Origin: a phage
Length of the DNA: 44,954 nt
Sequence record: OZ503098.1
Reading direction: 5' to 3' (one strand)
Shown here: positions 7,599 to 33,158 of the stretch, piece by piece
Layout of the letters: the number at the start of each line of letters is the position of its first letter
Position numbering within the stretch: position 1 is the stretch's first letter
Notes under the pieces: model-generated
Told to the model about the DNA's origin: nothing
What the model saw: the letters and a program-made list of their open reading frames with translations, nothing else
The model's database searches: none
Translations under genes and position numbers: made by a program

Positions 7599-7877
7599 CT
7601 ATGCGACCAATTCAGCAACCAATAAATCACAGTCGGCGATGTTGTCTATGACGCGAACGTCCGCACCGCGGCGGGCCATCCGCTCATGCTCGCGTACCTG
7701 GTGCGGCTTCGGTTTTCCGCCGGGGCGCTTCACTTCGACGAACACTATTTTGCCGTTGATGATGATAATCAGATCGGGCGCACCCGCGCGCCCCTCCCAG
7801 GCCATTTTGCGGCAGAATCCGCCTACCTCTTTCACCCGTCGCATCAGGTGACTTTGAATCTTGCCTTCTGGTGTCAT
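7599..7877 (-). CDS. VRR-NUC domain nuclease
   Basis: APDLIIIINGKIVFVEVKRPGGKPKPHQ matches the VRR-NUC PD-(D/E)xK core (D...E-V-K); ATG 7877 abuts the upstream stop. Confidence 0.6.
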   Translation of the reverse strand: MTPEGKIQSHLMRRVKEVGGFCRKMAWEGRAGAPDLIIIINGKIVFVEVKRPGGKPKPHQVREHERMARRGADVRVIDNIADCDLLVAELVA

Positions 7878-8476
7878 TGTCGGCTTCTCCTTACGGCAGC
7901 GATGGCGGGTCCGATAAACTTCCGCATTTCGTCCGGGGTAAACCGGTCGCCGCGGGCTATGTTGCACTCTACGCAGCACGGCACACAATTATCTTTAGTA
8001 TGTCCAACCGCATTGTTGAGTCTGTCCACTCCATTGTCGCCGGTGAATCCGCAATACGTACACGGCAGGGAAGTAAGGTGCAGAACGTCCTCGGTTGTTA
8101 GGTCGGTGCTTAACCCCTTCCTTTCGTCTGACTTGCGGTATTGAAAGAGTTTATAGTAGGCGCGGACCTCTGGTGTCCGGCGGTTGTACTCTCGGCGTGA
8201 CTTATTAGCGCACGACCGGCACTCTTTACGGATATGTGACTGGCTGGCCTTGTTTCCTGGGCGGAAGTTCTCCGGCGTAAGCGTCTTGCGCTCCCCACAC
8301 CGGCGACACGTTACGATCTCCCCAGTGTACTCTCGCCATACTTCGCGCGGCGGAGCGCCTCTTTCTTTGTCCCGTCTCTCTTTCTTATATGCCGCCATGC
8401 ATTTGGCGCACCACGACTGGCCCTTGTTGAAAGCGGACTCATCTTTATCCGTATTACAACGCCCACAATGTTTCAT
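7874..8476 (-). CDS. Cys-rich zinc-finger protein with HNH-like C-terminus
   Basis: Several CxxC pairs; C-terminal CTYCGF...VDRLNNAVGHTKDNCVPCCVECNIARG resembles an HNH/zinc-binding nuclease core. Start placed at ATG 8476 (MKHCGRCN) rather than 8584, which would overlap the polymerase gene. Confidence 0.45.
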   Translation of the reverse strand: MKHCGRCNTDKDESAFNKGQSWCAKCMAAYKKERRDKERGAPPREVWREYTGEIVTCRRCGERKTLTPENFRPGNKASQSHIRKECRSCANKSRREYNRRTPEVRAYYKLFQYRKSDERKGLSTDLTTEDVLHLTSLPCTYCGFTGDNGVDRLNNAVGHTKDNCVPCCVECNIARGDRFTPDEMRKFIGPAIAAVRRSRQ

Positions 8477-8543
8477 ATACACCCCCGAAAAAGAAAACGC
8501 CAGACAATAATGCCCGACGTTTCCGCTAAAAGCAACATTTCCG

Positions 8544-10835
8544 CTACTTGCGGTAGCGATACATGCAATCGCCTTCGGCGGCAAGAGGGAAGCCTTTCGC
8601 CCAAACAGGCAGGTCGCACATCAGCGCGCATAGCTCCTCGGTCGTGTAGTCGTCAGTATCCGGAACCTCGGTGATCAGTTCATCGTGTACGGACAGTACG
8701 ATCTCATACCCAGCAGCTTCAACGCCTGGCATGGACCATGCGAGAATATCGCGACACAGCGCCTGCACGATGTTTTCCGTCAGTTTGCCGCCGTAGGTAT
8801 ACTGGAAGCCCCACTGGCGCGTCGTCTGATTCTCGCCCTGGTATTTGATGCGGGTGCTGGTGCGCTTCTTGCCGGTGTCTTCGTCAATCTCGGTCGTGAC
8901 AGACAGCGCAATGCCTGGATAACTCATAATACGCCCCGACGGCAACTCAATTTTCAACCACCACCCTGCGGCGTTCGGGTCGTCGCGCTCCTCGTCGAAG
9001 GTTGGGTCATGCTTCGCCTTCGTGCGAACAATCTTAAGCGCTTTCCTGCCATCCGGGCGAACGTTCGCACCCGCCCAGTATGCTTTGCCAGGATTGCGGA
9101 TCGCGCAGAGCACCGCGTCTTCCAGTTCAGCCCAAAATGCTACCGTCTTAGGGTGAGCCTCGCGCCACATACGTTTGATCGCGTCACACGTCAACCACAC
9201 GTTTTTCGGCAGTATGTAAGTTGGGCGCTCGTCTTTCTTGCCAGGCTTCGGCGGGCGCTTGGCTTCGTTAATGCGGGCATACTCATAACCACGTTTCGCC
9301 GCGGCCCAAATATGATCGGGGAATGTGCCCTTCATGACGTCCGCCATCGCATACAGGTCGAGGCCCAGGTTTTTAGCAAACTGCAGGAACGCTGCAACAC
9401 CGCCACCATAGCCCAACCCCAATTCGCACGCCTTACCAATCTGGCGCAAGTCTTTGCAGTTGGCTTTGATGTATTCCGGGTCGAGGCCAAACATCTTACC
9501 GGCAGTTTCACAATAGATATCGCGACCCGCCCTGAACACCATTAGCGCGGTTTTCTCCCCCGCGATCCAGGCGAGGCCACGCCCTTCCACGTTGGAGAAG
9601 TCAGCTACGACAAACTTCTTACCCTTCGCCGGAATAATGCACCCGCGAACAGTCGAGGCCGTTAGCTTCGATATGTCATACGCCCAGTGCGCTGTCCCGC
9701 GTAACAGGGAGTTGATGCCGTTGGTAAGCATGTGCGACCGCACCCAAAACGCGACGTCGCTCTCGCCTTCACGGCGTTTAATCTTCCCTTCGTGGTCGTC
9801 GCTATACTCGCCGCGTGCCAGGTTTTGCGGCTGGAAGCCTTTGCCGGCCCAGCGTAGCGTGCGTTTTGCCCCGCCATACTGGAGACAACCACGGCGGCGA
9901 CCATCGGCAGACAGCCCATTTACGAGCGGATTGTACTTAGTAGATGCCGTTGATGACGCGCCGAGGCGCATCTCGATAAGCACTTTGCCCTCGTCGGGGA
10001 AGTCCGGGTCTTCCAGCAGTTCGTTAAGCGTGGATTTCTGCGCGTTGTGTATTGTGAACGCAGGCGCGAGGTCGCGCAGCGCTGGCAGGAAGTCATTGCC
10101 GGTCAGCTTACCGCCGAAGCGCTCCCATGCTTCTTCCTTCAATTCTTCCTTATGCGCCTGCACCGCTTTGATCGCGGCGTTAGCCAGGTCAACGTCCACA
10201 TAGAAGCCGCGGTCGTTAATCATCTGGTCAATAAGCAGGATTTCATCTTCCTTCGGCGTGTTGCCCCAGTCTGGTATGCGCCAGTAGACTTCACGCATAG
10301 CAACAATATCCAGCGCGGCGTAGCGCAGGAATTTAGCCCACTCCTCGGGGTGCGTCTCGCGCGTATAGCGACGGATTTTGTAGGTCTTAGGGGTTGGCTT
10401 ACAGAATCGTTTGATTAGCGCCTTGCCAGCCTTATCCTTCGCGTGTTCTGCGTCAACGCCCAACACCTGGCACTGCATATCGAGGCTACCTGGCAGCGCG
10501 TGTCGAAAGGCCATAATCATGGTATCTTCGATCTGGCCTACCGGCAGGTCAATGCCCCACTTCTCGCGAATAACCAGGCGGTCAAACAGGAGGCCGTTAG
10601 CCATCACGATTTTTGCTTTCTTGCGGGATACCCGGCGGAGCGCCTTGCGCAGTTCACGCGGCATTGTGGGGGACTCGGTGCAATCCCATGTCTGCACGCG
10701 GCCCTCGTCGATGGCGTATGTGCAAATCATAATCTCGGTAGTTGGGTGTTCCGCGTAGGCGTATGCGCCCACTTTCTTCAGATCCACCCCGCTAAATGTC
10801 TCGGTATCGAGGAAAAGGCGTTCGAAGTCTTTCAT
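8544..10835 (-). CDS. DNA polymerase I family (family A) with 3'-5' exonuclease domain
   Basis: 763 aa; exo motif FLDTETFSG near the N-terminus, motif B-like RQIGKACELGLGYGGG, motif C VHDE (SVHDELITEV). Confidence 0.85.
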   Translation of the reverse strand: MKDFERLFLDTETFSGVDLKKVGAYAYAEHPTTEIMICTYAIDEGRVQTWDCTESPTMPRELRKALRRVSRKKAKIVMANGLLFDRLVIREKWGIDLPVGQIEDTMIMAFRHALPGSLDMQCQVLGVDAEHAKDKAGKALIKRFCKPTPKTYKIRRYTRETHPEEWAKFLRYAALDIVAMREVYWRIPDWGNTPKEDEILLIDQMINDRGFYVDVDLANAAIKAVQAHKEELKEEAWERFGGKLTGNDFLPALRDLAPAFTIHNAQKSTLNELLEDPDFPDEGKVLIEMRLGASSTASTKYNPLVNGLSADGRRRGCLQYGGAKRTLRWAGKGFQPQNLARGEYSDDHEGKIKRREGESDVAFWVRSHMLTNGINSLLRGTAHWAYDISKLTASTVRGCIIPAKGKKFVVADFSNVEGRGLAWIAGEKTALMVFRAGRDIYCETAGKMFGLDPEYIKANCKDLRQIGKACELGLGYGGGVAAFLQFAKNLGLDLYAMADVMKGTFPDHIWAAAKRGYEYARINEAKRPPKPGKKDERPTYILPKNVWLTCDAIKRMWREAHPKTVAFWAELEDAVLCAIRNPGKAYWAGANVRPDGRKALKIVRTKAKHDPTFDEERDDPNAAGWWLKIELPSGRIMSYPGIALSVTTEIDEDTGKKRTSTRIKYQGENQTTRQWGFQYTYGGKLTENIVQALCRDILAWSMPGVEAAGYEIVLSVHDELITEVPDTDDYTTEELCALMCDLPVWAKGFPLAAEGDCMYRYRK

Positions 10836-11060: not shown

Positions 11061-11849
11061 TTAACGGCGGCGACGTTTGCGTGGCGCTTCGTCTTCGTCG
11101 TCGTCCTCATCTTCGTCATCGCGTGGCTTACGACGTTTGCGAGGTTTTTCATCTTCCTCATCGTCGTCGTCATCGCGGCGCTTGGACTTTTTGGACTTGC
11201 GCGGCTTGTCATCTTCATCATCGTCATCACGACGTTTTGACTTCTTAGCCTTGCGCGGTGCTTCGTCTTCGTCTTCGTCGTCGTTGTCCAGGTCTTCATC
11301 GGAGCAAGAAGAACCACCACCACCGAAGGATTCGCCGTCATCGCGGAAGCGCAGACCCAGCAAGCCAGCACCGAGTCCCTTGCCGTTGGTATTGTTCCAC
11401 GCCCAGATATCGAGTGACACGTTGCAATAACAACCGGAGTAGATCTCCTGGCCTTCGATCTCGTCGCCGTCGATGGTCAGGCCTTGTTCAGTCTGCTTCT
11501 CGCCGAGTGACGTTTGAATGATCGGCTGTTTGAACGATTTAGCGTTGATGTACAACATGCCTTCGAATTCTTCGGTTACTTCATCGCGCTCGTCGCCGTC
11601 GCGAACTGCGCATTCCTTAGAATCCTGGGCGTAGTGGCGGTCCATCCACTTATCGGCATTCTTCTCAGATTTCAGCTTGTCGGTGAGCACTGCGCGCGCT
11701 GCCGCTTCCACTTTGTCCACCTGCGGATCTTCTTTATCCAGAAGAATCACGGCGCGGTATGCTGGTTTTTGTCCATCCTGTTTAGGGGTATCACGTTCCC
11801 AAATTTTCAGGAAACATACGCGCACATTTTTCAGGTTGACTTTAGCCAT
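11061..11849 (-). CDS. Putative single-stranded DNA-binding protein (DUF2815-like) with a long acidic/basic repeat tail
   Basis: N-terminus MAKVNLKNVRVCFLKIWE resembles the DUF2815 phage SSB-like N-terminus; located next to a DUF2800-like nuclease and PolA. C-terminal about 80 aa are three reiterations of DDDDEDD / KPRKSKKSKRR blocks. ATG 11849 has a GAGGAA RBS. Confidence 0.45.
   Translation of the reverse strand: MAKVNLKNVRVCFLKIWERDTPKQDGQKPAYRAVILLDKEDPQVDKVEAAARAVLTDKLKSEKNADKWMDRHYAQDSKECAVRDGDERDEVTEEFEGMLYINAKSFKQPIIQTSLGEKQTEQGLTIDGDEIEGQEIYSGCYCNVSLDIWAWNNTNGKGLGAGLLGLRFRDDGESFGGGGSSCSDEDLDNDDEDEDEAPRKAKKSKRRDDDDEDDKPRKSKKSKRRDDDDDEEDEKPRKRRKPRDDEDEDDDEDEAPRKRRRR
11080..11290. repeat. 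In-frame tandem repeat (about 60-bp units, three copies) encoding the acidic/basic tail of the SSB-like protein
   Basis: Repeated GTC/GTCGTC/ATC and CTT/TTT/GCG runs at DNA level; the protein shows the RRDDDDEDDKPRKSKKSKRRDDDDDEEDEKPRKRRKPRDDEDEDDD periodicity. Confidence 0.5.
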
Positions 11850-11939
11850 TTTCCAATTCCTCATTTTCACATGTATCGGGGTTATTGGAAGCCACCCCGT
11901 TCGGCTTGGTTGCTAATCTACTTGGTTGCGCCTGAGCGG

Positions 11940-12182
11940 TCAAGCATTTTCGTTAAAAAGATTTCGGGTAACGTAGTTGGTAGCGTTCTCGATCCAGCTT
12001 AGCGGCGGTCGGTCGATGTTCTTTTCCACCCAATCGACGGCAACTTCGCTATAGCCGTCATCCAGCCAGCGGGTCGGATGGCGAATCATCCACGCCACCA
12101 TTAACACGCCTTGCACGCAATGCAGGATAAAGCCCAGCGCGCCGAGCAAAAACATCAATAAGATTGCGAATACTTTATTCAT
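11940..12182 (-). CDS. Small membrane protein (80 aa)
   Basis: Two hydrophobic segments (FAILLMFLLGALGFIL and VLMVAWMI); starts 2 nt after the upstream stop. Confidence 0.45.
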   Translation of the reverse strand: MNKVFAILLMFLLGALGFILHCVQGVLMVAWMIRHPTRWLDDGYSEVAVDWVEKNIDRPPLSWIENATNYVTRNLFNENA

Positions 12183-13605
12183 TGCTTAAGTCCTCATCAG
12201 TGGCTTCAGACCACACAGGGCGCGGGTCGTCTATTGGGGCTAATACCGGTTTAGCCGGTGCGCGCGTGATTTTATCACACAGCTTCGCCCACACTTTCGG
12301 TTTTTCGTCCTTCAATACCTTCTCGGCATCCGTAGGGCTGAGCAATGTTTCTTTGTACATCACATCGCGCTTGATCCGGGCCTTCGTGAAGATTTCAATC
12401 ACTTCGCTCTCGTCCGCCCACTTACGGATCCCTTCCTTACCGGCAACCATCTTGAGGCCCAGCGATTCGCCATCGCCCGCCATGACCGCCTTGAATACCG
12501 CGGACTCGATAGCCTTGATGTGCTGGCGCATTGCGTCCAGGCCTTCATAAGCCTTGCGCAGTTCCGCAGCGCTCATAGCACCGGGGGCCGCTTCTTTCTT
12601 ACCACGCTTCGCACGTCGTGCCGCCTTCCTGGCTTCGCGGGCTATATTGCGGTCATGGTTGGCGCATTCTTCCTCTGTCGCAATACTCACGTCGTCGCCC
12701 AGGTCTTCGTCGGTTGCCGTTGGGTGTGTCATCGTGTCGATTGCGGCCTTAGCGCGGGCACTACACTGATCCGCAAATCGGCACCACTGGCACGCATCAA
12801 CGCTGGGGCGGAAGTCGGCACGGGTAAGCCCCTTCTTGCCTCGGGAATACGACTCCAGTGCGGCGATAGCACGCTTGGATGCGAACTTCGCGAATATCTC
12901 CAGCGCTTCTACCGAAATATCCCACTCCGACGCCCCGCCGCAATACGGCTGGAAGATAACCAGTCGCACGGTCGTAATGTCGTACATAGTTTGCAGCTTG
13001 CGCAGCAGGCCGAGCGCGTACAACATAAGCTGTTTGTTCTCTTTCGCCTCGACCTTATGACGCCCGGTCTTCAGGTCGCCAACAATCAGCATGTACGTCC
13101 CATCGGTCTTTTTCATGACCATGACCATATCGGCAGTACCGAACGTTTTAATCCTGTTGCCGTCGATCTCGTAGCCTGAGTGAAGGACGCGGGTCAGATC
13201 GGCGTGCATCTCAAGCTGAACAAACTCCGCCACTTCGATGAGCGGTCGCCAGTGGTCTATGTACGCGTCGCACTGTTTCACCATGTCGTCGTTGACCAGT
13301 ACGCCGCCTTTCGGTGCTTTCGGGTGTGCCTTTACCGGCCCCTTGCCTTCGTTCTCGACGTAGCACCCTTTATACGTCTTCGCGGTTATCAGCTTCTCAC
13401 CGGCTATAATGCGGTTTAGCACCACCTCCGATACGGTGTGCATACTCGTACCGTTAATCGCGGCTTGCCCGGATTCGTTCGGGATATCTTTTTCTACCAC
13501 CAGGGCGGCTGGGCAACCCATCCATTTTTTAGCACCGGATGGCCCGAGTAATGAGTGTTCCGTATTGCTGCCGGATTGCGTCTTACGTTTTGGTTTAATC
13601 GCCAT
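12175..13605 (-). CDS. DUF2800-like PD-(D/E)xK (Cas4/RecB-like) nuclease
   Basis: N-terminal LLGPSGAKKWMGCPA matches the characteristic DUF2800 opening (SxSGAxRWxxCP); C-terminal Cys cluster (CQWCRFADQC); paired with the DUF2815-like gene. Confidence 0.55.
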   Translation of the reverse strand: MAIKPKRKTQSGSNTEHSLLGPSGAKKWMGCPAALVVEKDIPNESGQAAINGTSMHTVSEVVLNRIIAGEKLITAKTYKGCYVENEGKGPVKAHPKAPKGGVLVNDDMVKQCDAYIDHWRPLIEVAEFVQLEMHADLTRVLHSGYEIDGNRIKTFGTADMVMVMKKTDGTYMLIVGDLKTGRHKVEAKENKQLMLYALGLLRKLQTMYDITTVRLVIFQPYCGGASEWDISVEALEIFAKFASKRAIAALESYSRGKKGLTRADFRPSVDACQWCRFADQCSARAKAAIDTMTHPTATDEDLGDDVSIATEEECANHDRNIAREARKAARRAKRGKKEAAPGAMSAAELRKAYEGLDAMRQHIKAIESAVFKAVMAGDGESLGLKMVAGKEGIRKWADESEVIEIFTKARIKRDVMYKETLLSPTDAEKVLKDEKPKVWAKLCDKITRAPAKPVLAPIDDPRPVWSEATDEDLSNE

Positions 13606-18061: not shown

Positions 18062-18090
18062 TTGCACCCGCCCTGGCACCCTGCTATATT
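18062..18090 (+). promoter_or_regulatory. Sigma70-like promoter TTGCAC-17-TATATT embedded in two ATTGGTTGCAC motif copies, upstream of gene 18119
   Basis: -35 TTGCAC 18062-18067, 17-bp spacer, -10 TATATT 18085-18090; motif copies at 18057-18067 and 18088-18098. Confidence 0.45.
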
Positions 18091-19843: not shown

Positions 19844-20134
19844 ATGGATAAGCTAAACGAGTGGTTATTCGCCCTTGCGTGTCTTGCTGGTGGCTTCGTC
19901 GGCGCACGCATTCATGGCGAGGCAACGAAAGGGCCGTTGAATTTCGTTTTATATGTCGTAGTTGGCTTCCTGTGTGCCATATTTGGTGCGCCAGCTATTG
20001 CGGAGTGGTCTGGTTTGTCTGGCGAGCGCACTGTCGCCGGATTGGGCTTCGTAACTGCGATCTTCTGGATGCCAATCGCTGACCGGATCCGGGAGACTAT
20101 TGCGTCGTTCCGACTTCCGGGGGGTGCAAAATGA
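19844..20134 (+). CDS. Putative holin (96 aa, multiple TM segments)
   Basis: Small hydrophobic protein with about three TM segments immediately upstream of the endolysin. Confidence 0.45.
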   Translation: MDKLNEWLFALACLAGGFVGARIHGEATKGPLNFVLYVVVGFLCAIFGAPAIAEWSGLSGERTVAGLGFVTAIFWMPIADRIRETIASFRLPGGAK

Positions 20135-20376
20135 TTATCTCCGTCCTGTTGTTTGTTATCATAGGGGCTTCGTCCCTGTTTAACGTGTATGCGCCGTCCG
20201 TCCGGGATGGCATTTTCGGTCGGGTGCTGTATCTGTTAACGGCAATGGTCTGTATTATCGGATTGTTGCAAACAGGAGACGTATCGGATACCACCTGGAC
20301 CGCGTTAATCTGGCTGTTTGCATTGCGCACCCTGCGTAATGCTGTTTTGAATGGGGTAAAACATGCGATTCAGTGA
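20131..20376 (+). CDS. Putative holin/antiholin partner (81 aa, multiple TM segments)
   Basis: Second small membrane protein; ATGA overlap with the upstream gene; GGGGGG RBS; overlaps the endolysin start. Confidence 0.4.
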   Translation: MIISVLLFVIIGASSLFNVYAPSVRDGIFGRVLYLLTAMVCIIGLLQTGDVSDTTWTALIWLFALRTLRNAVLNGVKHAIQ

Positions 20377-20854
20377 TAACGGTCTACGATTTACGGCAGC
20401 ATGGGAGGCTTTCAGCCCGGTGCCGTATTTCGCGACCAAGAAAGAGCAGGCCCGCGGCCTGTACACCTGGGGCTATGGGCACACCGGCACTAATCCGCCA
20501 CGAAGCATTACCCGTGCGGAAGCGCTGGAACTGCTCAAGCGCGATGTGGCGTATGCCGAGGACTGGGTGAACAAATACGCACATCCGAGCATTAACCAGG
20601 CGCAATTCGACGCGCTGGTGGACCTGGTAATCAACGCCGGTCCAGGTCCGATCGTACCGGATGACGTCGCGAATGATTTCGATGATGCGGTCCGCCTGGG
20701 CGACTGGGCGAAGGTCCGTGCTACTCTGCCGCAGTTCCGCAAGCAAGGTGGCGAAGTGCTTAAGGGTCTGGTGCGCCGTGCAATCGGCAGACAGGCGTTG
20801 TTTGATGGTAAGCAGTGGGACGTTGCCGAGAAAATCGGGCGTAACGCAGCATAA
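20363..20854 (+). CDS. Endolysin, T4 E / lambda R-type lysozyme (GH24)
   Basis: N-terminal FTAAWEAFSPVPY...GLYTWGYGHTG (catalytic Glu followed by the TxGYGH-type motif); 163 aa; follows the two holin-like genes. Confidence 0.75.
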   Translation: MRFSDNGLRFTAAWEAFSPVPYFATKKEQARGLYTWGYGHTGTNPPRSITRAEALELLKRDVAYAEDWVNKYAHPSINQAQFDALVDLVINAGPGPIVPDDVANDFDDAVRLGDWAKVRATLPQFRKQGGEVLKGLVRRAIGRQALFDGKQWDVAEKIGRNAA

Positions 20855-20870
20855 TACGAGGTAACACAGT

Positions 20871-21038
20871 ATGTTAAAAAGCATTCTTGATCATAACGCC
20901 GACGCGCTCGCCGCGCTGGCTAAAACCGAAGATCCGGGCGCACGCGCTATCATCGCGGACACTATCAGCCACGCGGGGGTCTTCGATGCGAAGCTGCCAA
21001 GCCCGCCACCGCCGGAAGAACCAGACCCCACAGCGTAA
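20871..21038 (+). CDS. Small hypothetical protein (55 aa), Ala-rich with a Pro-rich C-terminus
   Basis: GAGG RBS; MLKSILDHNADALAALAKTEDPGARAIIADTISHAGVFDAKLPSPPPPEEPDPTA; last gene before the terminator. Confidence 0.3.
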   Translation: MLKSILDHNADALAALAKTEDPGARAIIADTISHAGVFDAKLPSPPPPEEPDPTA

Positions 21039-21045
21039 ACAATCA

Positions 21046-21071
21046 AGCCCGGATAATACCGGGCTTTTTAT
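21046..21071 (+). terminator. Rho-independent terminator after the lysis cassette
   Basis: AGCCCGG-ataat-ACCGGGCT followed by TTTTT. Confidence 0.6.
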
Positions 21072-21074
21072 TGC

Positions 21075-21104
21075 TTGACTCGCAACCAACATAGGGGCCA
21101 TACT
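21075..21104 (+). promoter_or_regulatory. Promoter-like element TTGACT-18-CATACT overlapped by two (T)GCAACCAA(T) motif copies
   Basis: Motif copies sit in the spacer and at the start site, i.e. operator-like placement; precedes a strong GGAGGAG RBS. Confidence 0.35.
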
Positions 21105-21133
21105 GCAACCAATCAACTGGAGGAGTAATCAAG

Positions 21134-21214
21134 ATGGCACGTAAAGATATTTGGGTATTAGCGATCTGGACCACCGCGGCTTTTATCGGCATGGTTATTT
21201 GCGAATTGATATAG
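21134..21214 (+). CDS. Possible 26-aa hydrophobic micro-protein
   Basis: Strong RBS GGAGGAG 7 nt upstream of ATG; MARKDIWVLAIWTTAAFIGMVICELI; followed by a 9-bp stem hairpin (21228-21253). Confidence 0.25.
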   Translation: MARKDIWVLAIWTTAAFIGMVICELI

Positions 21215-21275
21215 CCCGCCGCCATACGGACCGTGGTATATTGTCCACGGTCCACTAATCAGGAATTAATTAAAT

Positions 21276-22418
21276 ATGCACCCGCAAACTAAAATTACCG
21301 ATGAGCAATTGATCGCAGAAATTCAGGCAGGGACTACAGTTAAAGAGATTGCGAAGAAATACGGGATTGCCCTACGCAATGTCTATATGCGGAAAGCCCG
21401 CCTGTCGAAAAAAGGCATTGGACACGGCAACGATGCTGTAATCCGCAAGCGCGTTGCCGACGGGTTTGGGGTTAAGCGCGTATCGGCCCTGGTGCGCGGC
21501 AATGGCGAAGAGGTCATGTCGTGGGTTATCACTGAGCAGGACAAAGAGCGCCAACTCGAAGCCATGCGCGCTGTTGTCGAGGGTATGAACAGCGAAATCA
21601 CACCGGCAGCGCCAGTAAAAGCCCCGCCAGTTCCGATCCAGGCGCTCGACTTGCTCAACCTGTACACCGTATCCGACTTCCACCTGGGCATGTTGGCATG
21701 GGGCGAGGAGACTGGCGAAGACTGGGATATGGCGATCGCCGAAGACCTGTTCTACCGCTGGTTTGTCGAAGCCTTCGCCCGCGCACCGGACGCAGGCACT
21801 GCCGTAATTAATATCCTCGGGGATATGGCCCACTTTGATAGCCTCGACGCTGTCACTCCGGCAAGTGGTCACATACTGGACGCTGACACCCGCTACCAGA
21901 AACTGGTCCGATACATGATTCGCATGGTGCGCAACGTAGTCGAACTGGCGCTGCAAAAACACCACAAAGTAAAACTGCTAATCGTCCAGGGAAATCATGA
22001 CGAGTCGGGTATGATTTGGCTGGCGGAGATGTTCAATACTCTGTACGAGAACGAGCCGCGCGTCGATGTGGATACGTCCCCGGACGTCTACAAAATGGTG
22101 CAGCACGGCAAGACCACGCTATTTTTCCACCACGGGCATAAAGCGCGATTCGATGCTATCGAGCAGGTTATGATTTCTAAATTCAGACAGGCTTTCGGAT
22201 CCAGTGAGTACAGCTACGCGCACGTAGGCCACTTGCACCACCAGAAGATTGTAGAATCCCGCAACATGATTGTTGAACAGCACCGGACGCTCGCAGCGAA
22301 AGACGCCTACGCCAGTCGTGGCGGTTGGATGTCCGGTCGCAGCGCAAACGTCATCACCTACAGCGCCAACTACGGCGAAGTAGCGCGCTTAACCATTAGC
22401 CCCGAAATGTTGAAGTAA
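21276..22418 (+). CDS. Calcineurin-like metallophosphoesterase with an N-terminal HTH-like segment
   Basis: Metallophosphoesterase motifs DFHLG, GDMAHFD (GDxxH), GNHDE, HHGH; N-terminal TVKEIAKKYGIALRNVYMRKARLSKKG looks like an HTH. Confidence 0.65.
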   Translation: MHPQTKITDEQLIAEIQAGTTVKEIAKKYGIALRNVYMRKARLSKKGIGHGNDAVIRKRVADGFGVKRVSALVRGNGEEVMSWVITEQDKERQLEAMRAVVEGMNSEITPAAPVKAPPVPIQALDLLNLYTVSDFHLGMLAWGEETGEDWDMAIAEDLFYRWFVEAFARAPDAGTAVINILGDMAHFDSLDAVTPASGHILDADTRYQKLVRYMIRMVRNVVELALQKHHKVKLLIVQGNHDESGMIWLAEMFNTLYENEPRVDVDTSPDVYKMVQHGKTTLFFHHGHKARFDAIEQVMISKFRQAFGSSEYSYAHVGHLHHQKIVESRNMIVEQHRTLAAKDAYASRGGWMSGRSANVITYSANYGEVARLTISPEMLK

Positions 22419-22449
22419 CGGCAACCAGTAATCCTCCCAGCCTGCCGAT

Positions 22450-22478
22450 TTGGTGGGCTTTTTTGTGCCTGTTATAAT
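22450..22478 (+). promoter_or_regulatory. Extended -10 promoter (TGtTATAAT) upstream of the packaging genes
   Basis: TGTTATAAT at 22470-22478 (perfect TATAAT with upstream TG); weak -35 TTGGTG at 17-bp spacing. Confidence 0.4.
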
Positions 22479-22548: not shown

Positions 22549-23100
22549 ATGGCAGAAATCAAAGTTAAGGGCCGACGCGCCAAACTGGACGGACGAGTAG
22601 CAGTAACCCCGCGCCGTAAACCAGGCGAGCAAACCGAGCATACCAATCTCGGACCTGAGATCGAGTACGGCAAGCGCCGTAAAGGCGGCAAATGTGGACG
22701 CCCTACTGACTACCGATCTGTTTACTGCGACCAGCTTCGTCGCTATTTTGCCGACGCCGACGCCTGGCAGGTCAATTACTCCGATAAAGGCGCTGCGCAG
22801 GTAATCCCTCGCAACAAAATGCCAACCTTCGGCAGATTTGCCGCGGAAATCGGTGTGGGCGTAGCTTGCCTGTATCGCTGGGCGCGCGCACATGAGGAGT
22901 TTGCCGAGGCGATGGCGGACGCAATGGAGTTGCAGAAAACTTTCCTGATGGAAGCTGGCGGCGTGACTATCGCGGCAGGCTTCGCGACCTTCCTGCTCAA
23001 AGCCAATCACGGCGTACGCGACGATATCCCACTGGATGACGACGAAGATGATAACGGCGACGTCGTTGTCGAACCTACCGGCAAAGGCCAGGGTGAGTAA
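22549..23100 (+). CDS. Terminase small subunit
   Basis: Immediately upstream of and overlapping the large terminase gene; HTH-like FGRFAAEIGVGVACLYRWARAHEEF; basic N-terminus, acidic C-terminus; start chosen at ATG 22549 (MAEIKVKG). Confidence 0.55.
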   Translation: MAEIKVKGRRAKLDGRVAVTPRRKPGEQTEHTNLGPEIEYGKRRKGGKCGRPTDYRSVYCDQLRRYFADADAWQVNYSDKGAAQVIPRNKMPTFGRFAAEIGVGVACLYRWARAHEEFAEAMADAMELQKTFLMEAGGVTIAAGFATFLLKANHGVRDDIPLDDDEDDNGDVVVEPTGKGQGE

Positions 23101-24485
23101 TGCGTAACTATGCGGCAGAACACCGCGCACTGGAACGCGCGATCGCGAAGCGCAACCGACCACCGCGCCCGACACGCGTTGCGCAGGCGGTGCGGCTTTA
23201 CCAGCCTGATTGCCTACCGCACCAGGTCGAACTACTGCGGGACACGAAGACTAAAATCCTCGGCCTGTGTTCCGGCTTCGGCGGCGGCAAGTCATGGGTC
23301 GCAGCCCGTAAGGTAATCCAGCTTTTAACCCTGAACCCGGGTCATGATGGCATCGTTACAGAACCGACTATTCCCCTCCTGGTTAAAATCATGTATCCAG
23401 AATTGGAGAAGGCTTTCGACGAGGCTGGCTTCCGGTGGAAGTTCAACAAGCAGGACAAGATCTATAGCGTTCTGGTGAAAGGCAAATGGACCCGCGTGAT
23501 CTGTGAATCAATGGAGAACTATACCCGTCTGATCGGGGTCAACGCCGCGTGGATTGTTGCCGACGAGTTCGATACCACGAAACAAGACGTCGCAATGGCG
23601 GCTTATCACAAATTGCTCGGTCGTCTGCGTGCGGGCGTGGTCCGTCAGTTTGTCATCGTATCCACGCCGGAAGGCTTCCGGGCAATGTATCAAATTTTCG
23701 AGGTGGAGAAGGATAGCCAGAAACGTTTGATCCGGGCGAAGACCACCGACAACCACCATTTACCGGCAGACTTTATCGACACGCTGCGCAGTCAGTACCC
23801 GGCGAACCTTATTGACGCGTACCTGAACGGCCTGTTTGTTAACCTTACGTCGGGCGCGGTGTACAAGATGTTCAACCGCGAGGAGAACGCCAGCACCGAA
23901 GAAGTGCAGCCGGACGACACGCTGATTATCGGCATGGACTTTAACGTCACGAAGATGGCGGCGGTTGTGTACGTCAGACGGCAGCGAATCACAGAGAACA
24001 AGGAGTTCCGCGACGAGATTCACGCGGTGGATGAATTTGTGGACCTGTTTGACACTCCGGCGATGATCGAGGCGATCGAGGAGCGCTACCCGGAACATTG
24101 CGCCGCCGGTAAAGTCGTAGTTTACCCGGATAGCAGTGGCAAGTCGCGTAAGACGGTCAACGCGTCGTCGTCCGATATCGCGCAACTGGAAGATGCGGGC
24201 TTCGAGGTGGAATATGACAGTGTTAACCCGCCTGTGAAAGACCGATTGATCGCGATGAATACGATGATGTGCAACTCGAAGGGTGTGCGCCAGTATTTTG
24301 TCAACCTGGATAAATGCCCTACACTAGCGAAATGTCTGGAACAGCAGGTGTACGACCTGAAGAAAGGCGAGCCGGATAAAACTGCCGGTGTGGACCACAT
24401 GAATGACGCAGCGGGCTACCCTATTGCGCACTTGTTCCCTGTGATTCGTCCGATCGCCGTTGTTCCTACCGTAGATTTCTACTAA
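23100..24485 (+). CDS. Terminase large subunit
   Basis: Walker A-like GFGGGKS, Walker B-like AAWIVADEFD, C-terminal nuclease-like region; 461 aa; TAATG overlap with the small subunit gene. Confidence 0.8.
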   Translation: MRNYAAEHRALERAIAKRNRPPRPTRVAQAVRLYQPDCLPHQVELLRDTKTKILGLCSGFGGGKSWVAARKVIQLLTLNPGHDGIVTEPTIPLLVKIMYPELEKAFDEAGFRWKFNKQDKIYSVLVKGKWTRVICESMENYTRLIGVNAAWIVADEFDTTKQDVAMAAYHKLLGRLRAGVVRQFVIVSTPEGFRAMYQIFEVEKDSQKRLIRAKTTDNHHLPADFIDTLRSQYPANLIDAYLNGLFVNLTSGAVYKMFNREENASTEEVQPDDTLIIGMDFNVTKMAAVVYVRRQRITENKEFRDEIHAVDEFVDLFDTPAMIEAIEERYPEHCAAGKVVVYPDSSGKSRKTVNASSSDIAQLEDAGFEVEYDSVNPPVKDRLIAMNTMMCNSKGVRQYFVNLDKCPTLAKCLEQQVYDLKKGEPDKTAGVDHMNDAAGYPIAHLFPVIRPIAVVPTVDFY

Positions 24486-27104: not shown

Positions 27105-27426
27105 ATACGCAGCGATTGGGCTGGTTATCGGTCTGGCGGTAGGATTCTGGCTAGGTGACTCCTATCGCGCTGGCGTAGTGGCGGAGGCGGCGCAAGAAGC
27201 CCAAGCCCAAGCCCAACGGCAGCAAACTAAAGTTGTTGAGCGCTCCGTGCAGGCCGAACAAGCCCGCGACGTAGAATACCGGACTATCACGAAAGAGGTT
27301 GTTAAATATGTTACGCGCCCTAACCGCCCTGATTGTAGTTTTGATGCTGAGCGCGTGCGGATCAAGCAACGTGCCGTTGATGCCGCTAACGGAGTCGGCA
27401 CTGCGACCGCCGTGCAAGTTCGATAG
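27097..27426 (+). CDS. Putative i-spanin (Rz-like): N-terminal TM segment plus Gln/Ala-rich coiled coil
   Basis: GTG start at 27097 with GGGGG RBS (the track's TTG start at 27067 is also possible); AAIGLVIGLAVGFWLG TM segment followed by AQEAQAQAQRQQTKVVERSVQAEQ; overlaps an embedded lipoprotein ORF. Confidence 0.45.
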   Translation: MIKYAAIGLVIGLAVGFWLGDSYRAGVVAEAAQEAQAQAQRQQTKVVERSVQAEQARDVEYRTITKEVVKYVTRPNRPDCSFDAERVRIKQRAVDAANGVGTATAVQVR

Positions 27427-27580
27427 CCCGTCCGCAGACCCCGACGAGGATTTGATGATTGACGTGAAAAATATGGAATGCGGGGCGAAGCTAAGGGCGC
27501 AGGTGCTGGAGTTGCAGCAAATAATTAAGGGCCGTAATGGCCCCCTTTTCGTTAGCGCGGAATACCGCAAATCTCGTTGA
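27308..27580 (+). CDS. Putative o-spanin (Rz1-like outer-membrane lipoprotein), overlapping the i-spanin gene in the +1 frame
   Basis: ATG 27308 with AAAGAGG RBS; signal peptide with lipobox MLRALTALIVVLMLSACGSS; Pro-rich mature part; 90 aa. Confidence 0.5.
   Translation: MLRALTALIVVLMLSACGSSNVPLMPLTESALRPPCKFDSPSADPDEDLMIDVKNMECGAKLRAQVLELQQIIKGRNGPLFVSAEYRKSR
27529..27551. terminator. Bidirectional hairpin at the convergence of the o-spanin gene and the minus-strand moron
   Basis: GGGCC-gtaat-GGCCC followed by CCTTTTCGTT on plus and by UUAAUUAUUU on minus. Confidence 0.4.
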
Positions 27581-28316
27581 GAGTTTTCACATCCAGCGCC
27601 ACCGCCGTGGATTTTGGCTTGTCCGGGTAAGGGATGAATTGCTCAACTTCAGGCCATGCCTTAATCAGCTTCTTGTCAGTATTGTGCAGGTCCAGCACAC
27701 CGGTAACGGTCAACTTGAACGCGTCATACTTAGCCCGCAACTCACGGCGGGCCTTGTCGTTACGGTCCAGGCGCTTACAGAAATCATGATCCGCCGGGAA
27801 ATCCGCACGGCAGTGTGGCTTATAGATCGGCAGCGCTTTCCCGTCCTCGTCCACTTCGCACACTGACGCGAGCATAACTTCTTCAAACCCCGGTACGATA
27901 TCGCCTAAATCGGGGGATAGCTTATTCATGTATTTATATTCCCAGCATCCGCGATGTACGCGGTATTGGCGACCGTCACCGCTCAAGGATAAGGTGCGAA
28001 CATTTCCGCCTGCGTTGATTTCGAAAGTGGCGTCGTAAACGCTGCCGATACCTTTCGGGCGGTCGGCGTTATAACGATATGTCGCCTTGTTGGTGTATAC
28101 ACAGACGCCGTACATCTGCGACGGGTCATCGCCGATTGCTTCAATGTGCGCGAGTAGCTCGGCGAACGTGCGAATGCCTTCCGGCATACAGTCCAGCGTA
28201 ATGGCATAAGCCAGGTCGCGCGAGTCCATCATGATTTGTTTGGCTTCGGTTGCGATTTCGTGGTCGCGCAGGATGTTAGCCAGAATCTGATTTTTAATGT
28301 CTTTAGTAAGTCTCAT
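27552..28316 (-). CDS. Opposite-strand moron: hypothetical protein (254 aa) of unknown function
   Basis: Only minus-strand gene inside the 15-43 kb plus-strand block; ATG 28316 with GAGGA RBS; own promoter-like element upstream and hairpin downstream; Cys/His-containing (HRGCWEYKY, KPHCRADFPADHDFCKR) but no motif I can name. Confidence 0.55.
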   Translation of the reverse strand: MRLTKDIKNQILANILRDHEIATEAKQIMMDSRDLAYAITLDCMPEGIRTFAELLAHIEAIGDDPSQMYGVCVYTNKATYRYNADRPKGIGSVYDATFEINAGGNVRTLSLSGDGRQYRVHRGCWEYKYMNKLSPDLGDIVPGFEEVMLASVCEVDEDGKALPIYKPHCRADFPADHDFCKRLDRNDKARRELRAKYDAFKLTVTGVLDLHNTDKKLIKAWPEVEQFIPYPDKPKSTAVALDVKTLNEICGIPR

Positions 28317-28345
28317 TTTTGTGTCCTCGTTGTTGGTGTGCAACC

Positions 28346-28375
28346 AATATATTGCAACCAATACCCGGATTGCAA
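28346..28375 (-). promoter_or_regulatory. Promoter for the moron: TTGCAA-18-TATATT on the minus strand, overlapping two ATTGGTTGCA copies
   Basis: Minus-strand reading: TTGCAAtccgggtATTGGTTGCAaTATATTGGTTGCAC; same architecture as the 18062-18090 promoter. Confidence 0.4.
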
Positions 28376-30422: not shown

Positions 30423-30923
30423 ATGTATGGCGACCCGCAAACCTTTGTTGTTTATGCCGCGGCGCGAGGCGTTGAAATTACGCAGAGCGACGCAACTCGA
30501 CACCTTACCATTGTTAATGACTTCCTTAACGGCATCGACTGGATCGGCGAACAAGCGGACCCGACCGGAATTGACGCATGGCCCCGCGTCAACTACCCGT
30601 CAGACGGTAAGCCGGTGCAAAACACGCTTACTGAAGATTTGACAGTAGTTCCTGCGGGGCAGATTGTAGACTTCGCATCAATCCCTGTTGCCGTTGAGCA
30701 AGCAGTTTACCGGCTGGCAATGTTGGTGGCGGACGATGTTGATATTTCTCCGGTCAGCGATGGAAAGGAGACTATCCGTGAAACGGTAGGCCCGATCACG
30801 ATGGAGTATGACGCCGCGACGATTGGTAGCGGTGTGTCTTTCCCGTGGTGGGATGGCTTGCTGGGCTATTGGGTGGATGTAGACGGCAACGCAGCGGGTA
30901 ATTTTGACGTATTCAGGGGGTAA
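30423..30923 (+). CDS. Putative head-tail connector / head completion protein (166 aa)
   Basis: Internal ATG 30423 with AGGAG RBS (the long ORF start at 30234 would overlap the capsid gene); first gene after the capsid terminator. Confidence 0.45.
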   Translation: MYGDPQTFVVYAAARGVEITQSDATRHLTIVNDFLNGIDWIGEQADPTGIDAWPRVNYPSDGKPVQNTLTEDLTVVPAGQIVDFASIPVAVEQAVYRLAMLVADDVDISPVSDGKETIRETVGPITMEYDAATIGSGVSFPWWDGLLGYWVDVDGNAAGNFDVFRG

Positions 30924-30924
30924 T

Positions 30925-31023
30925 ATGAATCCAGCATTACTGGCGGCTATTATCGCCGCAAATACTAAACGCCAACCAGAACCGGAATCACCGGTACAGG
31001 AGGATGAAAATGGCGGGCTTTAA
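30925..31023 (+). CDS. Possible 32-aa micro-ORF
   Basis: TAATATG coupling to the upstream stop; MNPALLAAIIAANTKRQPEPESPVQEDENGGL; overlaps the next start; weak support. Confidence 0.25.
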   Translation: MNPALLAAIIAANTKRQPEPESPVQEDENGGL

Positions 31024-31363
31024 TTACACGGGATTAAAGCGGAAAGTCAATCCGCTGATTAAAAAGTTCGGCATGACCGTTACGGTTACGCGTCCTGGGT
31101 CGGTTGACCGCGTAGACGGCGACGAAGTGGTAATCCCGCCAACGTCGTTTGACGTCATCGGTCTTCGCGAGGAGTACGAGCCTAGCGAGATCGACGGTAC
31201 GCGTATCGTTGCCGGTGATGTGAAGTTTTTGTGCCAGGCCGTCAAGCCGGTGAAGGTAGGGGATTTGGTTAGCCTGAACAATACAGACTACCGGGTTATC
31301 AATCCCAACCCCCTGCAACCGGCGGGCGCAACCATGCTGTTTCAATTACAGCTAAGGGGCTGA
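31010..31363 (+). CDS. Putative head-tail joining protein (117 aa)
   Basis: AGGAGG RBS 6 nt upstream of ATG 31010 (the track's ATG at 31004 abuts the RBS); position in the neck module. Confidence 0.45.
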   Translation: MAGFNYTGLKRKVNPLIKKFGMTVTVTRPGSVDRVDGDEVVIPPTSFDVIGLREEYEPSEIDGTRIVAGDVKFLCQAVKPVKVGDLVSLNNTDYRVINPNPLQPAGATMLFQLQLRG

Positions 31364-31364
31364 C

Positions 31365-31958
31365 GTGGCTGAGGTCTACTCATTCGCCGCCACTATTGCT
31401 ACGTGGGTGGATAAGACGAAGGAGAACAACGATAAGGCGGTGCAGGCGTATGGGATGCAAATACTCGGACGCCTTATTGAGATCTCCCCAGTGGGCGACC
31501 CTCGCCGGTGGAAAATTAACAGGGCTTACGCGCTGGCCCGCCAGCACGCGAACAAGGTGAACGCCGCACAGCGCCGCAAGAATGGCGGCAAACTGAAGCG
31601 CGGGCAGAAGAAGCACGCCAGTGTGCTCGTTTCATTCAAGACTAAAAACGGCAACGTCACGTTCCGCCAGCGTGGCTGGGCCGCGAAGAATTACACCGGC
31701 GGGCGCTTCCGTGGTAACTGGCAGGTGACGTTCGACCGCCCGGCTGTTGGCGCTATTGACCGCGTGGATAAGGCAGGAACGGCAACATTAGCCGCGGGGC
31801 GTGAAGTGCTGGCGCACTACGATTCGAGTGAATACGGGTCAATCTGGTTTACTAACAACGTGCCATACGCGCAGCGACTTGAGTATGGCTGGAGTAAACA
31901 AGCGCCAGCGGGGATTGTTCGCGTCGTAGCGGCAGAAATTAATTCGAAGGTGAAATAA
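31365..31958 (+). CDS. Putative neck/tail-completion protein (197 aa), GTG start
   Basis: GTG 31365 with AAGGGG RBS, directly after the upstream stop; basic region RRKNGGKLKRGQKKHASV. Confidence 0.45.
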   Translation: MAEVYSFAATIATWVDKTKENNDKAVQAYGMQILGRLIEISPVGDPRRWKINRAYALARQHANKVNAAQRRKNGGKLKRGQKKHASVLVSFKTKNGNVTFRQRGWAAKNYTGGRFRGNWQVTFDRPAVGAIDRVDKAGTATLAAGREVLAHYDSSEYGSIWFTNNVPYAQRLEYGWSKQAPAGIVRVVAAEINSKVK

Positions 31959-32380
31959 TGAGCAATACCGCAATCCGCAAAGCGCTTAACAGCGTGGTAG
32001 AAGAGTTATCGTCGAGCCTGAGCACAAGCCCGCGTCCGATCCAGGTTAACTGGGAGAACGTGCAAGGGGACCACGCAAACGGTAGTGGTGTCTACCTGGA
32101 GCCGTACCTGCTACCGGCCCCGACTCAGTTTGCGGGCTTACAGCAGAAGGGCCGGATCTATGCTGGCGTATATCAAGTTGCCGTGGTGTTCCCGGCTGGC
32201 ACTGGCACACAGTACGCGAGCGAACTGGCGGACGCCATCGCTACGTCGGATAAGTGGCTGGCGGTAAAGATTTCCGGCGCTGCATTCCAGCTTCAGGACG
32301 CGCCATACACCAGTTCAGTGGTTGAGGACGTTGATCGCGCCCGCATTGTGGTTACAGTCCCCTACACCTGTTGCGCCTGA
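31958..32380 (+). CDS. Putative tail terminator/completion protein (140 aa)
   Basis: TAATG coupling to the upstream gene; position immediately before the major tail protein. Confidence 0.45.
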   Translation: MSNTAIRKALNSVVEELSSSLSTSPRPIQVNWENVQGDHANGSGVYLEPYLLPAPTQFAGLQQKGRIYAGVYQVAVVFPAGTGTQYASELADAIATSDKWLAVKISGAAFQLQDAPYTSSVVEDVDRARIVVTVPYTCCA

Positions 32381-32441
32381 TTTGGCGCAATTCTGCGCGT
32401 GCTGTATCATTAAACCGTATATCTAAACAGGAGCGTTCATT

Positions 32442-33158
32442 ATGGGTTATCAACTTCCTAACGGGTCTAGCGTCCAGATTGGGTCCGTACTGGGTAAAGG
32501 CGTCGCGGTCACGGCAGCAACCAACGCCGTCGCGTCAATCTCTGACAAAACGAAAGGTTGCGTTATCACCTGCGCGGCTTCTCATGGCCTGGTAGTTGGC
32601 GACGTGGTGATGTTCACCAAATCTCCGTGGGTCCGTGCACTTAACCGCGCGTTCATCGTGGGTAAAGTGGAGCCTAACAGCGTTACGCTGGCGGGCTTCG
32701 ACTCCTCCGATGTTACCAAATACCCTTCCGGTGCTTTCAGCACTGGCACTCCGGGCGAAGTGGTTAAGGTGTCGGGCTTTATTGACTTCCCGTACATCAC
32801 TAACGTTGCCGTGTCTGGCGGCGACCAGCAGACGACTACCTTCCAGCCGCTGCAGTTGAACACCGCGATCAGCATTAACACCACGAAAAATCCGTGGGTG
32901 CAGACTTTTACCTTCACCCATGACGTGGAAGACCCGATCCGCCCTGTCCTGGAAGACCTGGACGACACACAGAAAACCACTGTAATCCAGTTCACTAACC
33001 CCGCGGCAGCAGGCGGCAAAGGTGAGGTGCGCATTTACCCAGCTAAGGTATCTTTCCAGAAGATTCCATCCGCTGAAGTAAATAACGTGGAGACGGTGCA
33101 AGTGACTTTGACCATGCAGGCGGATATGGTCATCTACCTCAAAAGTTTGGGCGCTTAA
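32442..33158 (+). CDS. Major tail (tube) protein
   Basis: 238-aa Gly/Val/Thr-rich protein upstream of the G/GT chaperone genes, followed by a strong terminator. Confidence 0.6.
   Translation: MGYQLPNGSSVQIGSVLGKGVAVTAATNAVASISDKTKGCVITCAASHGLVVGDVVMFTKSPWVRALNRAFIVGKVEPNSVTLAGFDSSDVTKYPSGAFSTGTPGEVVKVSGFIDFPYITNVAVSGGDQQTTTFQPLQLNTAISINTTKNPWVQTFTFTHDVEDPIRPVLEDLDDTQKTTVIQFTNPAAAGGKGEVRIYPAKVSFQKIPSAEVNNVETVQVTLTMQADMVIYLKSLGA

Follow-up and report, generated by a model that had tools for sequence, protein, structure and literature searches.

A widespread siphophage metallophosphoesterase with an N-terminal helix-turn-helix domain, a candidate stand-alone DNA phosphodiesterase

The stretch that we analysed (sequence record OZ503098.1, 44,954 nucleotides; hereafter the window) is a Dhillonvirus-type coliphage genome. 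On its plus strand, at 21276-22418, it carries an ATG-initiated open reading frame (ORF) for a 380-residue protein that joins an N-terminal helix-turn-helix (HTH) domain to a metallophosphoesterase (MPE) domain. From the predicted structure, the motifs and the neighbouring genes we infer DNA as the substrate, a nuclease activity and a biological role, and we consider it somewhat probable that the protein is a partner-less, HTH-tethered DNA phosphodiesterase acting in phage DNA metabolism. As we picture it, the basic three-helix HTH (residues 9-45) would bind duplex DNA, a beta-hairpin/helix spacer and a flexible Pro/Ala-rich linker would join it to a Mre11/SbcD/DP1-like two-metal domain (residues 121-380), and this catalytic domain would hydrolyse DNA phosphodiester bonds as an exonuclease, an endonuclease or both. 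Because there is neither a Rad50/SbcC-type ATPase partner nor a capping domain, the HTH would take over the holding of the substrate in place of partner and cap. The role would lie in lytic-cycle DNA metabolism: most plausibly the enzyme would break down host DNA to supply nucleotide salvage, or alternatively it would process DNA ends or branches in the service of recombination-dependent replication and concatemer formation.

The coordinates of the gene are exactly as first noted, and codon comparison indicates that it is a real gene for an enzyme with an intact active site, under purifying selection in both modules. Against close Dhillonviruses, synonymous and non-synonymous codon differences number 39-60 and 2-6 in the MPE part, and 15-32 and 0-9 in the N-terminal 120 codons. 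The product matches PHROG 704 ('DNA repair exonuclease') over its full length in a hidden Markov model search (E 1.1e-161, residues 5-380 against profile positions 2-390 of 390), with a second match to PHROG 284 ('exonuclease', E 1e-13). The 4.5 kb around the gene share 93-95% nucleotide identity with many Escherichia phages, including UDS3lw, HK1, JL1 and SECphi4; near-identical proteins (99-99.7% identity) are already in GenBank, and about 155 Dhillonvirus-type records carry the gene at the same locus with at least 90% amino acid identity. Beyond this genus, tblastn found homologues in 2,063 phage records, with identities of approximately 75-80% in Kagunavirus, approximately 50% in Jerseyvirus and 43-47% in Drexlerviridae (T1 and Webervirus included), and with further homologues in Vibrio, Ruegeria, Campylobacter and other phages. 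The T1 protein ST16 (45% identity, E 7e-110) and AAS23 gp38 (42% identity) are full-length homologues. An exhaustive profile-free search returned 4,682 representative clusters when the threshold was E <= 1e-3, and 1,133 of these stayed within E <= 1e-30. Nearly all family ORFs in the loci that we fetched encode 351-425 residues, which makes the N-terminal extension a constant of the family; the longer family members have added HTH or winged-HTH segments, never a second enzyme domain.

With homologues in more than 2,000 sequenced phages, T1 among them, the family ranks with the most widespread of the uncharacterised enzyme families in virulent siphophages, and its carriers include many therapy candidates against Escherichia coli, Klebsiella and Salmonella. 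Public names for the protein vary ('hypothetical protein', 'putative phosphoesterase', 'metallophosphoesterase', 'DNA repair exonuclease', 'winged helix-turn-helix domain-containing protein', 'HTH luxR-type domain-containing protein'). Both halves of the first observation, HTH and MPE, are thus already reflected in database annotation, and the gene family is catalogued, not new; the label 'DNA repair exonuclease' is nonetheless an unverified inference and is to be treated as such. AAS23 gp38 was found by liquid chromatography coupled to tandem mass spectrometry of purified virions (PMC8004638). The comparable 'virion' proteome of the T1-like phage Sfin-1 also includes helicase, primase, holin and terminase (PMC6714547), and because replication and lysis proteins turn up in such a preparation, we take the detection of gp38 as evidence of expression only and not of virion association.

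The catalytic domain (21636..22415, plus strand) is a binuclear MPE domain whose alpha/beta sandwich runs to the C-terminus. All five motifs of the calcineurin-like superfamily (DxH, GD, GNH(D/E), H and GHxH) are present, together with the four-layer alpha/beta sandwich fold; in this protein the motifs read D134-F-H136, G182-D-M-A-H186, G239-N-H-D242, H285-H-G-H288 and, fifth, G318-H-L-H321. We scored conservation in an alignment of 84 homologues of 32-48% identity. D134, H136, G182, D183, N240, H241, H286, G318 and H321 are invariant there, and conservation is 90% or more at H186, D242, H285, G287, H288 and H319. By this alignment, conservation of the motifs lies far above what chance motif matches would give, and the original prediction, which had picked out DxH, GDxxH, GNHD/E and HxGH, was right in each of the four. 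The domain nevertheless misses the gathering thresholds of Pfam (22.8 bits against a cut-off of 27 for Metallophos_2, 20.7 against 21.5 for Metallophos), while some homologues pass the MPE threshold (P0127, for example, at 25.1); judged from sequence, the family is divergent from the seed sequences of the Pfam MPE entries (PF00149 and PF12850). A loop of about 25 residues after motif II (residues 182-206) is specific to the family and strongly conserved, with the pattern GD-xx-H-x-D-x5-TP-x3-H-x-LD-x-D-x-R.

In comparisons of the structural model, the closest relatives of the catalytic domain are nucleases, namely PolD-DP1, Mre11 and SbcD; Foldseek placed Mre11 first (2.8e-8) and DP1 next, and an independent annotator's HHpred note on a Kagunavirus homologue also names DP1. 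When a profile of the catalytic domain was compared with all PDB sequences, Mre11 of Thermotoga maritima was the sole MPE recovered (E 0.3-1.2). The alignment is in register at motif I (tDaHlG against SDWHLG) and at motif II (GDflH against GDLLH), so the near-invariant H186 corresponds to the motif-II histidine of Mre11. A direct phmmer search of the PDB gave only spurious repeat-protein matches.

Protein phosphatases are distant in the same structure comparison (PP5 9.1, PP1 8.5, calcineurin 8.4), and we found neither the GDxVDRG and GNHE signatures of PPP-type Ser/Thr phosphatases, lambda phosphatase included, nor a close structural similarity to them. Lambda encodes an MPE protein phosphatase, and a DNA-tethered Ser/Thr/Tyr phosphatase resembling lambda NinI, acting on DNA-bound host or phage proteins, would have the superfamily fold and the metal-binding motifs in common with our protein. 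With the structural distance and the wrong motif signatures, we regard such an enzyme as very improbable; the earlier suggestion of a phosphatase tethered to DNA thus gives way to a nuclease as the likelier kind of enzyme.

Other MPEs that are not nucleases come close behind the nucleases (LpxH 13.8, MJ0936 13.4, YfcE 12.8, GpdQ 12.5, Rv0805 12.2), and this small structural margin leaves room for a phosphodiesterase of small molecules, serving counter-defence or metabolism, whose substrates might be second messengers (of CBASS, Pycsar or type III CRISPR systems), Ap4A-type dinucleotides or some other nucleotide-containing metabolite. Against it, Acb1 (a 2H phosphoesterase) and Apyc1 (a metallo-beta-lactamase fold), the phage enzymes known to degrade such signals, are of other folds. 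A conserved basic HTH is also hard to square with a soluble small-molecule substrate, the gene is kept across whole genera and is not a sporadic accessory, and PADLOC gave no match that would link the phosphoesterase gene to defence or anti-defence; we hold this explanation to be improbable.

An AlphaFold2 model built from the alignment of 84 homologues (mean predicted local distance difference test score, pLDDT, 91.9; predicted template modelling score 0.79) divides the protein into four parts, of which the MPE domain is the last. The first is a three-helix HTH domain (residues 9-45; 21300..21410, plus strand). The second (residues 64-105; 21465..21590, plus strand) consists of a beta-hairpin (64-73 and 79-88) and a helix (90-105); it is specific to the family, with G77 and W83 at least 90% conserved, and we found no recognisable structural relative of this module. 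The third is a Pro/Ala-rich linker (residues 106-120; 21591..21635, plus strand), with a pLDDT of about 62-71 in the full-length model and the lowest conservation of the protein. Net charge is +8 over residues 1-60 and -8 over the catalytic domain. An HTH-like N-terminus had been proposed from the sequence, with the absence of such a fold from a structure prediction named beforehand as the result that would tell against it; the fold is predicted. Pfam matches give a mixed picture: HTH models match the present copy weakly (E 0.017 for GerE, 0.029 for HTH_28 and 0.1 for HTH_7, within a range of 0.017-0.18, all below cut-offs), while in individual homologues Sigma70_r4_2 reaches 1.5e-9, GerE 2.4e-8 and HTH_1 (LysR-type) 4.3e-6, alongside Fis-type and other models. 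GerE is also the top PDB match of the family profile, and in structure comparison the HTH model resembles DNA-bound resolvase and LuxR-type domains. The HTH may bind DNA, for which the net charge of +8 over residues 1-60 gives indirect support.

A catalytic domain joined through a linker to an HTH is also the architecture of modular homing endonucleases. We rejected this candidate, as the distribution of the gene is neither sporadic nor mobile: it has the same locus in the approximately 155 Dhillonvirus-type records, is syntenic within other genera, and is under purifying selection.

Terminator-like hairpins stand on both sides of the gene. The upstream one (AAGCCCGG-N6-CCGGGCTT followed by a T-run; 21045..21066, plus strand; -15.2 kcal/mol, z -4.5) closes the lysis cassette, is kept in the Dhillonvirus alignment and is an annotated terminator in phage PTXU06; the downstream one, also with a T-run (22439..22459, plus strand; -12.3 kcal/mol, z -2.1), lies directly 3' of the stop codon. 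About 34 nucleotides before the start codon is an extended -10 promoter element, TGGTATATT (21234..21242, plus strand), which matches TGNTATAWT. Its block, CCGTG(G/A)TATATTG, is the sole upstream element conserved in all eight Dhillonviruses covered by our alignment of the upstream region, and it probably acts as the promoter of the phosphoesterase gene. Because the two hairpins flank the gene and a conserved promoter-like element precedes it, the gene looks like a separate unit and not a part of a late operon, that is, an independent cassette read by host RNA polymerase; expression would probably proceed from this extended -10 promoter, between the two hairpins. Such independence would fit the differing positions of the gene among phage genera.

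Overlapping the -10 element is a perfect 9-bp palindrome or hairpin (GGACCGTGG-N8-CCACGGTCC; 21228..21253, plus strand; -18.8 kcal/mol, z -4.7). We considered and rejected a role as an operator, since the genome has no second copy of the palindrome, and the other Dhillonviruses neither keep its right arm nor show covariation or compensatory changes in it. The palindrome belongs to the case for a regulator of transcription or gene expression, in which the HTH would sit on phage or host promoters (controlling late timing, or the gene's own expression at the palindrome) and the MPE domain would serve as an accessory or as a sensor. That the HTH is of sigma-region-4, LuxR or resolvase type would suit a regulator, as would the place of the gene just upstream of the terS promoter. 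Besides the failings of the palindrome, however, the position relative to the late genes differs between genera, and conservation is highest in the catalytic domain, with the HTH among the least conserved parts. Since the catalytic residues are invariant, catalysis is what selection maintains, which counts against a regulator, and we think one quite improbable here.

The gene stands between the lysis cassette and the terminase genes, as the original prediction had it. From this it had argued for a slot where late-gene regulators are carried, an argument that we reject because the position of the gene differs between genera. A place between lysis and terminase genes is peculiar to Dhillonvirus. 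The ST16 gene of T1 lies downstream of the dam methylase gene and is followed by its own annotated rho-independent terminator, an HNH gene and the lysis genes; in Hanrivervirus the homologue is immediately upstream of the holin gene; and Webervirus and AAS23 have it between a methyltransferase gene and the genes for polynucleotide kinase (PNK), deoxynucleoside monophosphate (dNMP) kinase and holin. In T1, Hanrivervirus and Webervirus it thus lies upstream of the lysis genes, a long way from terS. Jerseyviruses and Kagunaviruses have it in a small, oppositely oriented island among tail genes, where it adjoins a superinfection-immunity gene and has an HNH-type gene nearby, while the homologue of a Vibrio phage adjoins an HNH gene and that of a Ruegeria phage a DNA methylase gene. 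No link of the gene to late transcription, or to the processing of DNA ends in packaging, came to light.

We surveyed neighbours more broadly by fetching 80 viral-contig loci with the catalytic-domain alignment, calling ORFs and collecting the neighbours within four genes on each side; 77 loci entered the clustering, in which neighbours were counted per lineage (28 lineages, defined at 75% or more MPE identity). There is no conserved partner gene, with no neighbour family present in more than 6 of the 28 lineages. The recurrent neighbours are endolysin (6 lineages), a PNK-type HAD 3'-phosphatase at position +1 (4), a 5'-3' exonuclease (4), dNMP kinase (3), deoxynucleoside triphosphate pyrophosphohydrolase (3), endonuclease VII (2), DNA ligase (2) and DNA polymerase (2). 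The enzyme has no obligatory partner, and its neighbours lean to DNA and nucleotide metabolism. The earlier proposal of a DNA- or RNA-directed activity therefore stands in part: a DNA-directed activity of nuclease type is best supported, by the DP1, Mre11 and SbcD structures, the motif-II histidine and the DNA-metabolism neighbours, while the suggested tie to end processing did not appear.

Some of the same neighbours suit the healing of nucleic acid ends, with the protein acting on broken RNA or DNA ends, as a 2',3'-cyclic phosphodiesterase or a 3'-phosphomonoesterase, and working with phage PNK to repair the damage done by host-defence nucleases. Such activities belong to lambda phosphatase and to the MPE module of Clostridium thermocellum Pnkp, and MPE chemistry is compatible with the idea. 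The PNK-type 3'-phosphatase (PHROG 415) is the immediate downstream neighbour in AAS23 as well as in the four lineages counted above, T1 also encodes a PNK, and the DNA ligase of two lineages is nearby. Adjacency to PNK is confined to a minority of lineages, however, and the annotation of the close relative HK1 has no PNK or ligase, nor was one found among the ORFs that we scanned in the window, although the gene is kept there. An enzyme that cleaves polymers is also the better fit to the DNA-type HTH and the nuclease-like structural neighbours, and we rate end healing as unlikely, though worth keeping in mind.

Phages of Webervirus and Sauletekiovirus type have, next after the homologue and on the same strand, the genes for the PNK-type 3'-phosphatase and dNMP kinase, just upstream of the lysis genes. 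These three genes could form a set for nucleotide salvage or for end healing. In Klebsiella phage FZ10 the stretch expected to hold the PNK gene (5122-5649) is without annotation; in AAS23 the region concerned is 30800-33057.

Several points weigh against a DNA-tethered nuclease. The literature that we searched yielded no biochemical or genetic study of any member of the PHROG 704 family, and the sequence match to T. maritima Mre11, at the E-values given above, is not statistically significant alone. HTH domains can also serve protein contacts or gene regulation. The C-terminal capping domain of Mre11 and SbcD is absent, the model ending with the MPE fold, and a Rad50/SbcC ATPase is neither annotated in HK1, nor found among the larger replication-arm ORFs scanned here, nor present among the neighbours in the 28 lineages. 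The phage already encodes, on the minus strand of its replication arm, a DUF2800/PD-(D/E)XK exonuclease (PHROG 69; 12178-13605) beside a T7 gp2.5-like single-stranded DNA-binding/annealing protein (PHROG 112; 11064-11870), and it also has an endonuclease VII-like gene (7877-8584); with these at hand, a further recombination nuclease may be redundant. A phage DNase would, moreover, have to spare phage DNA, for which we have no explanation at hand.

If the nuclease reading is right, the enzyme could account for the way in which these phages break down host DNA and recycle nucleotides, and it would show a Mre11-type active site working without Rad50 or a capping domain. Weaker degradation of host DNA in T1 raises transduction, and a nuclease of this kind would bear on the risk of generalised transduction by therapeutic phages. 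A bolder version, for which we would claim only a slim chance, is that the family makes up a class of DNases not recognised before, Mre11-like, HTH-guided and partner-less, with which virulent siphophages (T1-like phages, Dhillonvirus, Jerseyviruses, Kagunaviruses and many marine phages) take the host chromosome apart and so supply nucleotide salvage. Such a class could match the classical host-DNA-degradation function of T1 ('gene 2.5'), which is not known to have been assigned; a full-text search for literature on this gene or on host-DNA degradation by T1 gave no match.

The genes around the phosphoesterase gene are as follows. Upstream are two holin genes (19844-20134 and 20131-20376; PHROG 2359 and PHROG 2508 between them) and an endolysin gene (20363-20854; PHROG 7), directly 3' of which is a 55-residue ORF (20871-21038, plus strand; PHROG 11068). 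This ORF bears the public label 'major tail protein' in HK1 and JLBYU60 and is without annotation in TheodorHerzl; the label looks like a propagated mis-annotation. Downstream are terS (22549-23100; PHROG 3064), terL (23100-24485) and a portal gene.

Between the hairpin that closes the lysis cassette and the extended -10 element lies a small cassette (21075-21214), composed of a sigma-70-like promoter, TTGACT-N18-CATACT (21075..21104, plus strand; 9 of 12 consensus positions), and an optional ORF for a hydrophobic peptide of 26 residues, MARKDIWVLAIWTTAAFIGMVICELI (21134..21214, plus strand), which has a GAGGAG ribosome-binding site and no PHROG match. The cassette is an indel, present in most of the Dhillonviruses compared and cleanly absent from JLBYU60, Gluttony and TheodorHerzl. 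Because the promoter is absent together with the small ORF in these three, it is not the conserved promoter of the phosphoesterase gene. In GeorgBuechner and PTXU06 the ORF has synonymous and conservative changes and keeps its stop codon; from these comparisons it looks like a real, optional membrane-peptide gene, unannotated in several records, and a neighbour, not a part, of the enzyme.

Sequence reading and pattern matching place another extended -10 element, TGTTATAAT (22470..22478, plus strand), ahead of terS, where it would start transcription anew for the packaging and structural genes. In layout, terS and the phosphoesterase gene thus agree, each having before it a terminator-like hairpin and then an extended -10 element (TGTTATAAT and TGGTATATT, respectively). 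We rejected a genome-wide class of TGNTATAWT promoters: the four matches in the genome against 1.7 expected are not significant (12 of 100 shuffles reach four), and two of the four, at 18082 and 19517 on the same strand, are apparently inside coding sequences, as judged by offset from the HK1 annotation.

The anti-Tmn protein of Dhillonviruses and Nmad5, the trigger of Tmn, are encoded by genes other than the phosphoesterase gene. In the window, the gene for the Nmad5 domain protein (PF18757, E 1.4e-58) is at 27555-28361 on the minus strand, inside the head-morphogenesis module, and a second minus-strand ORF without a Pfam match adjoins it (27154-27570). A single Lys-to-Glu change in the Nmad5 gene of Dhillonviruses allows escape from the Tmn defence system (PMC11846954). 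For SECphi4, escape mutations are described in the single-stranded DNA-binding protein and the DNA polymerase, and the main text of that source does not mention the phosphoesterase gene (10.1101/2022.08.27.505566).

Among known systems, the nearest is the gene's own family, that is PHROG 704, T1 ST16 and the 'putative phosphoesterase' of Drexlerviridae, Guernseyvirinae and Dhillonvirus, which has the same architecture of HTH, hairpin and MPE domain; genome position is the sole difference from the present gene, and the family's names are computational only. Mre11 and SbcD have in common with our protein an MPE nuclease domain with the motif-II histidine (GDxxH); unlike them, it has the N-terminal HTH and hairpin module and the conserved loop after motif II. 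Phage members of the Mre11/SbcD nuclease family are T4 gp47 and T5 D12.

PolD DP1, the archaeal 3'-5' proofreading exonuclease, and the B-subunits of eukaryotic polymerases form the second comparison, at 13% sequence identity. In contrast to DP1, our protein has neither an OB-fold preceding the MPE domain nor a DP2-type partner. The phage polymerase is of family-A type with a proofreading domain of its own (PHROG 17), and that of SECphi4 is described in 10.1101/2022.08.27.505566.

The third comparison is with the MPE of cluster-A mycobacteriophages (A10ZJ24 Gp48, Bxb1 gp47 and L5 gp54), which, as here, is a solitary phage MPE without an ATPase partner. A10ZJ24 Gp48 has phosphodiesterase and DNase activity, degrades host DNA, and is required for phage DNA replication and counter-defence (PMC12287305). 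We rejected orthology with Gp48 and Bxb1 gp47, as Bxb1 gp47 matches PHROG 221 and not PHROG 704 and reaches an hhalign probability of only 3.5% against the family profile. The Gp48-type enzyme has 255 residues with motif I at residue 10, so that there is no place in it for an HTH or hairpin module, and its hosts and phage lineages are unrelated to the present phage. Gp48 is thus not an orthologue; by analogy with a partner-less phage MPE that degrades host DNA, it is the best functional counterpart for the enzyme described here.

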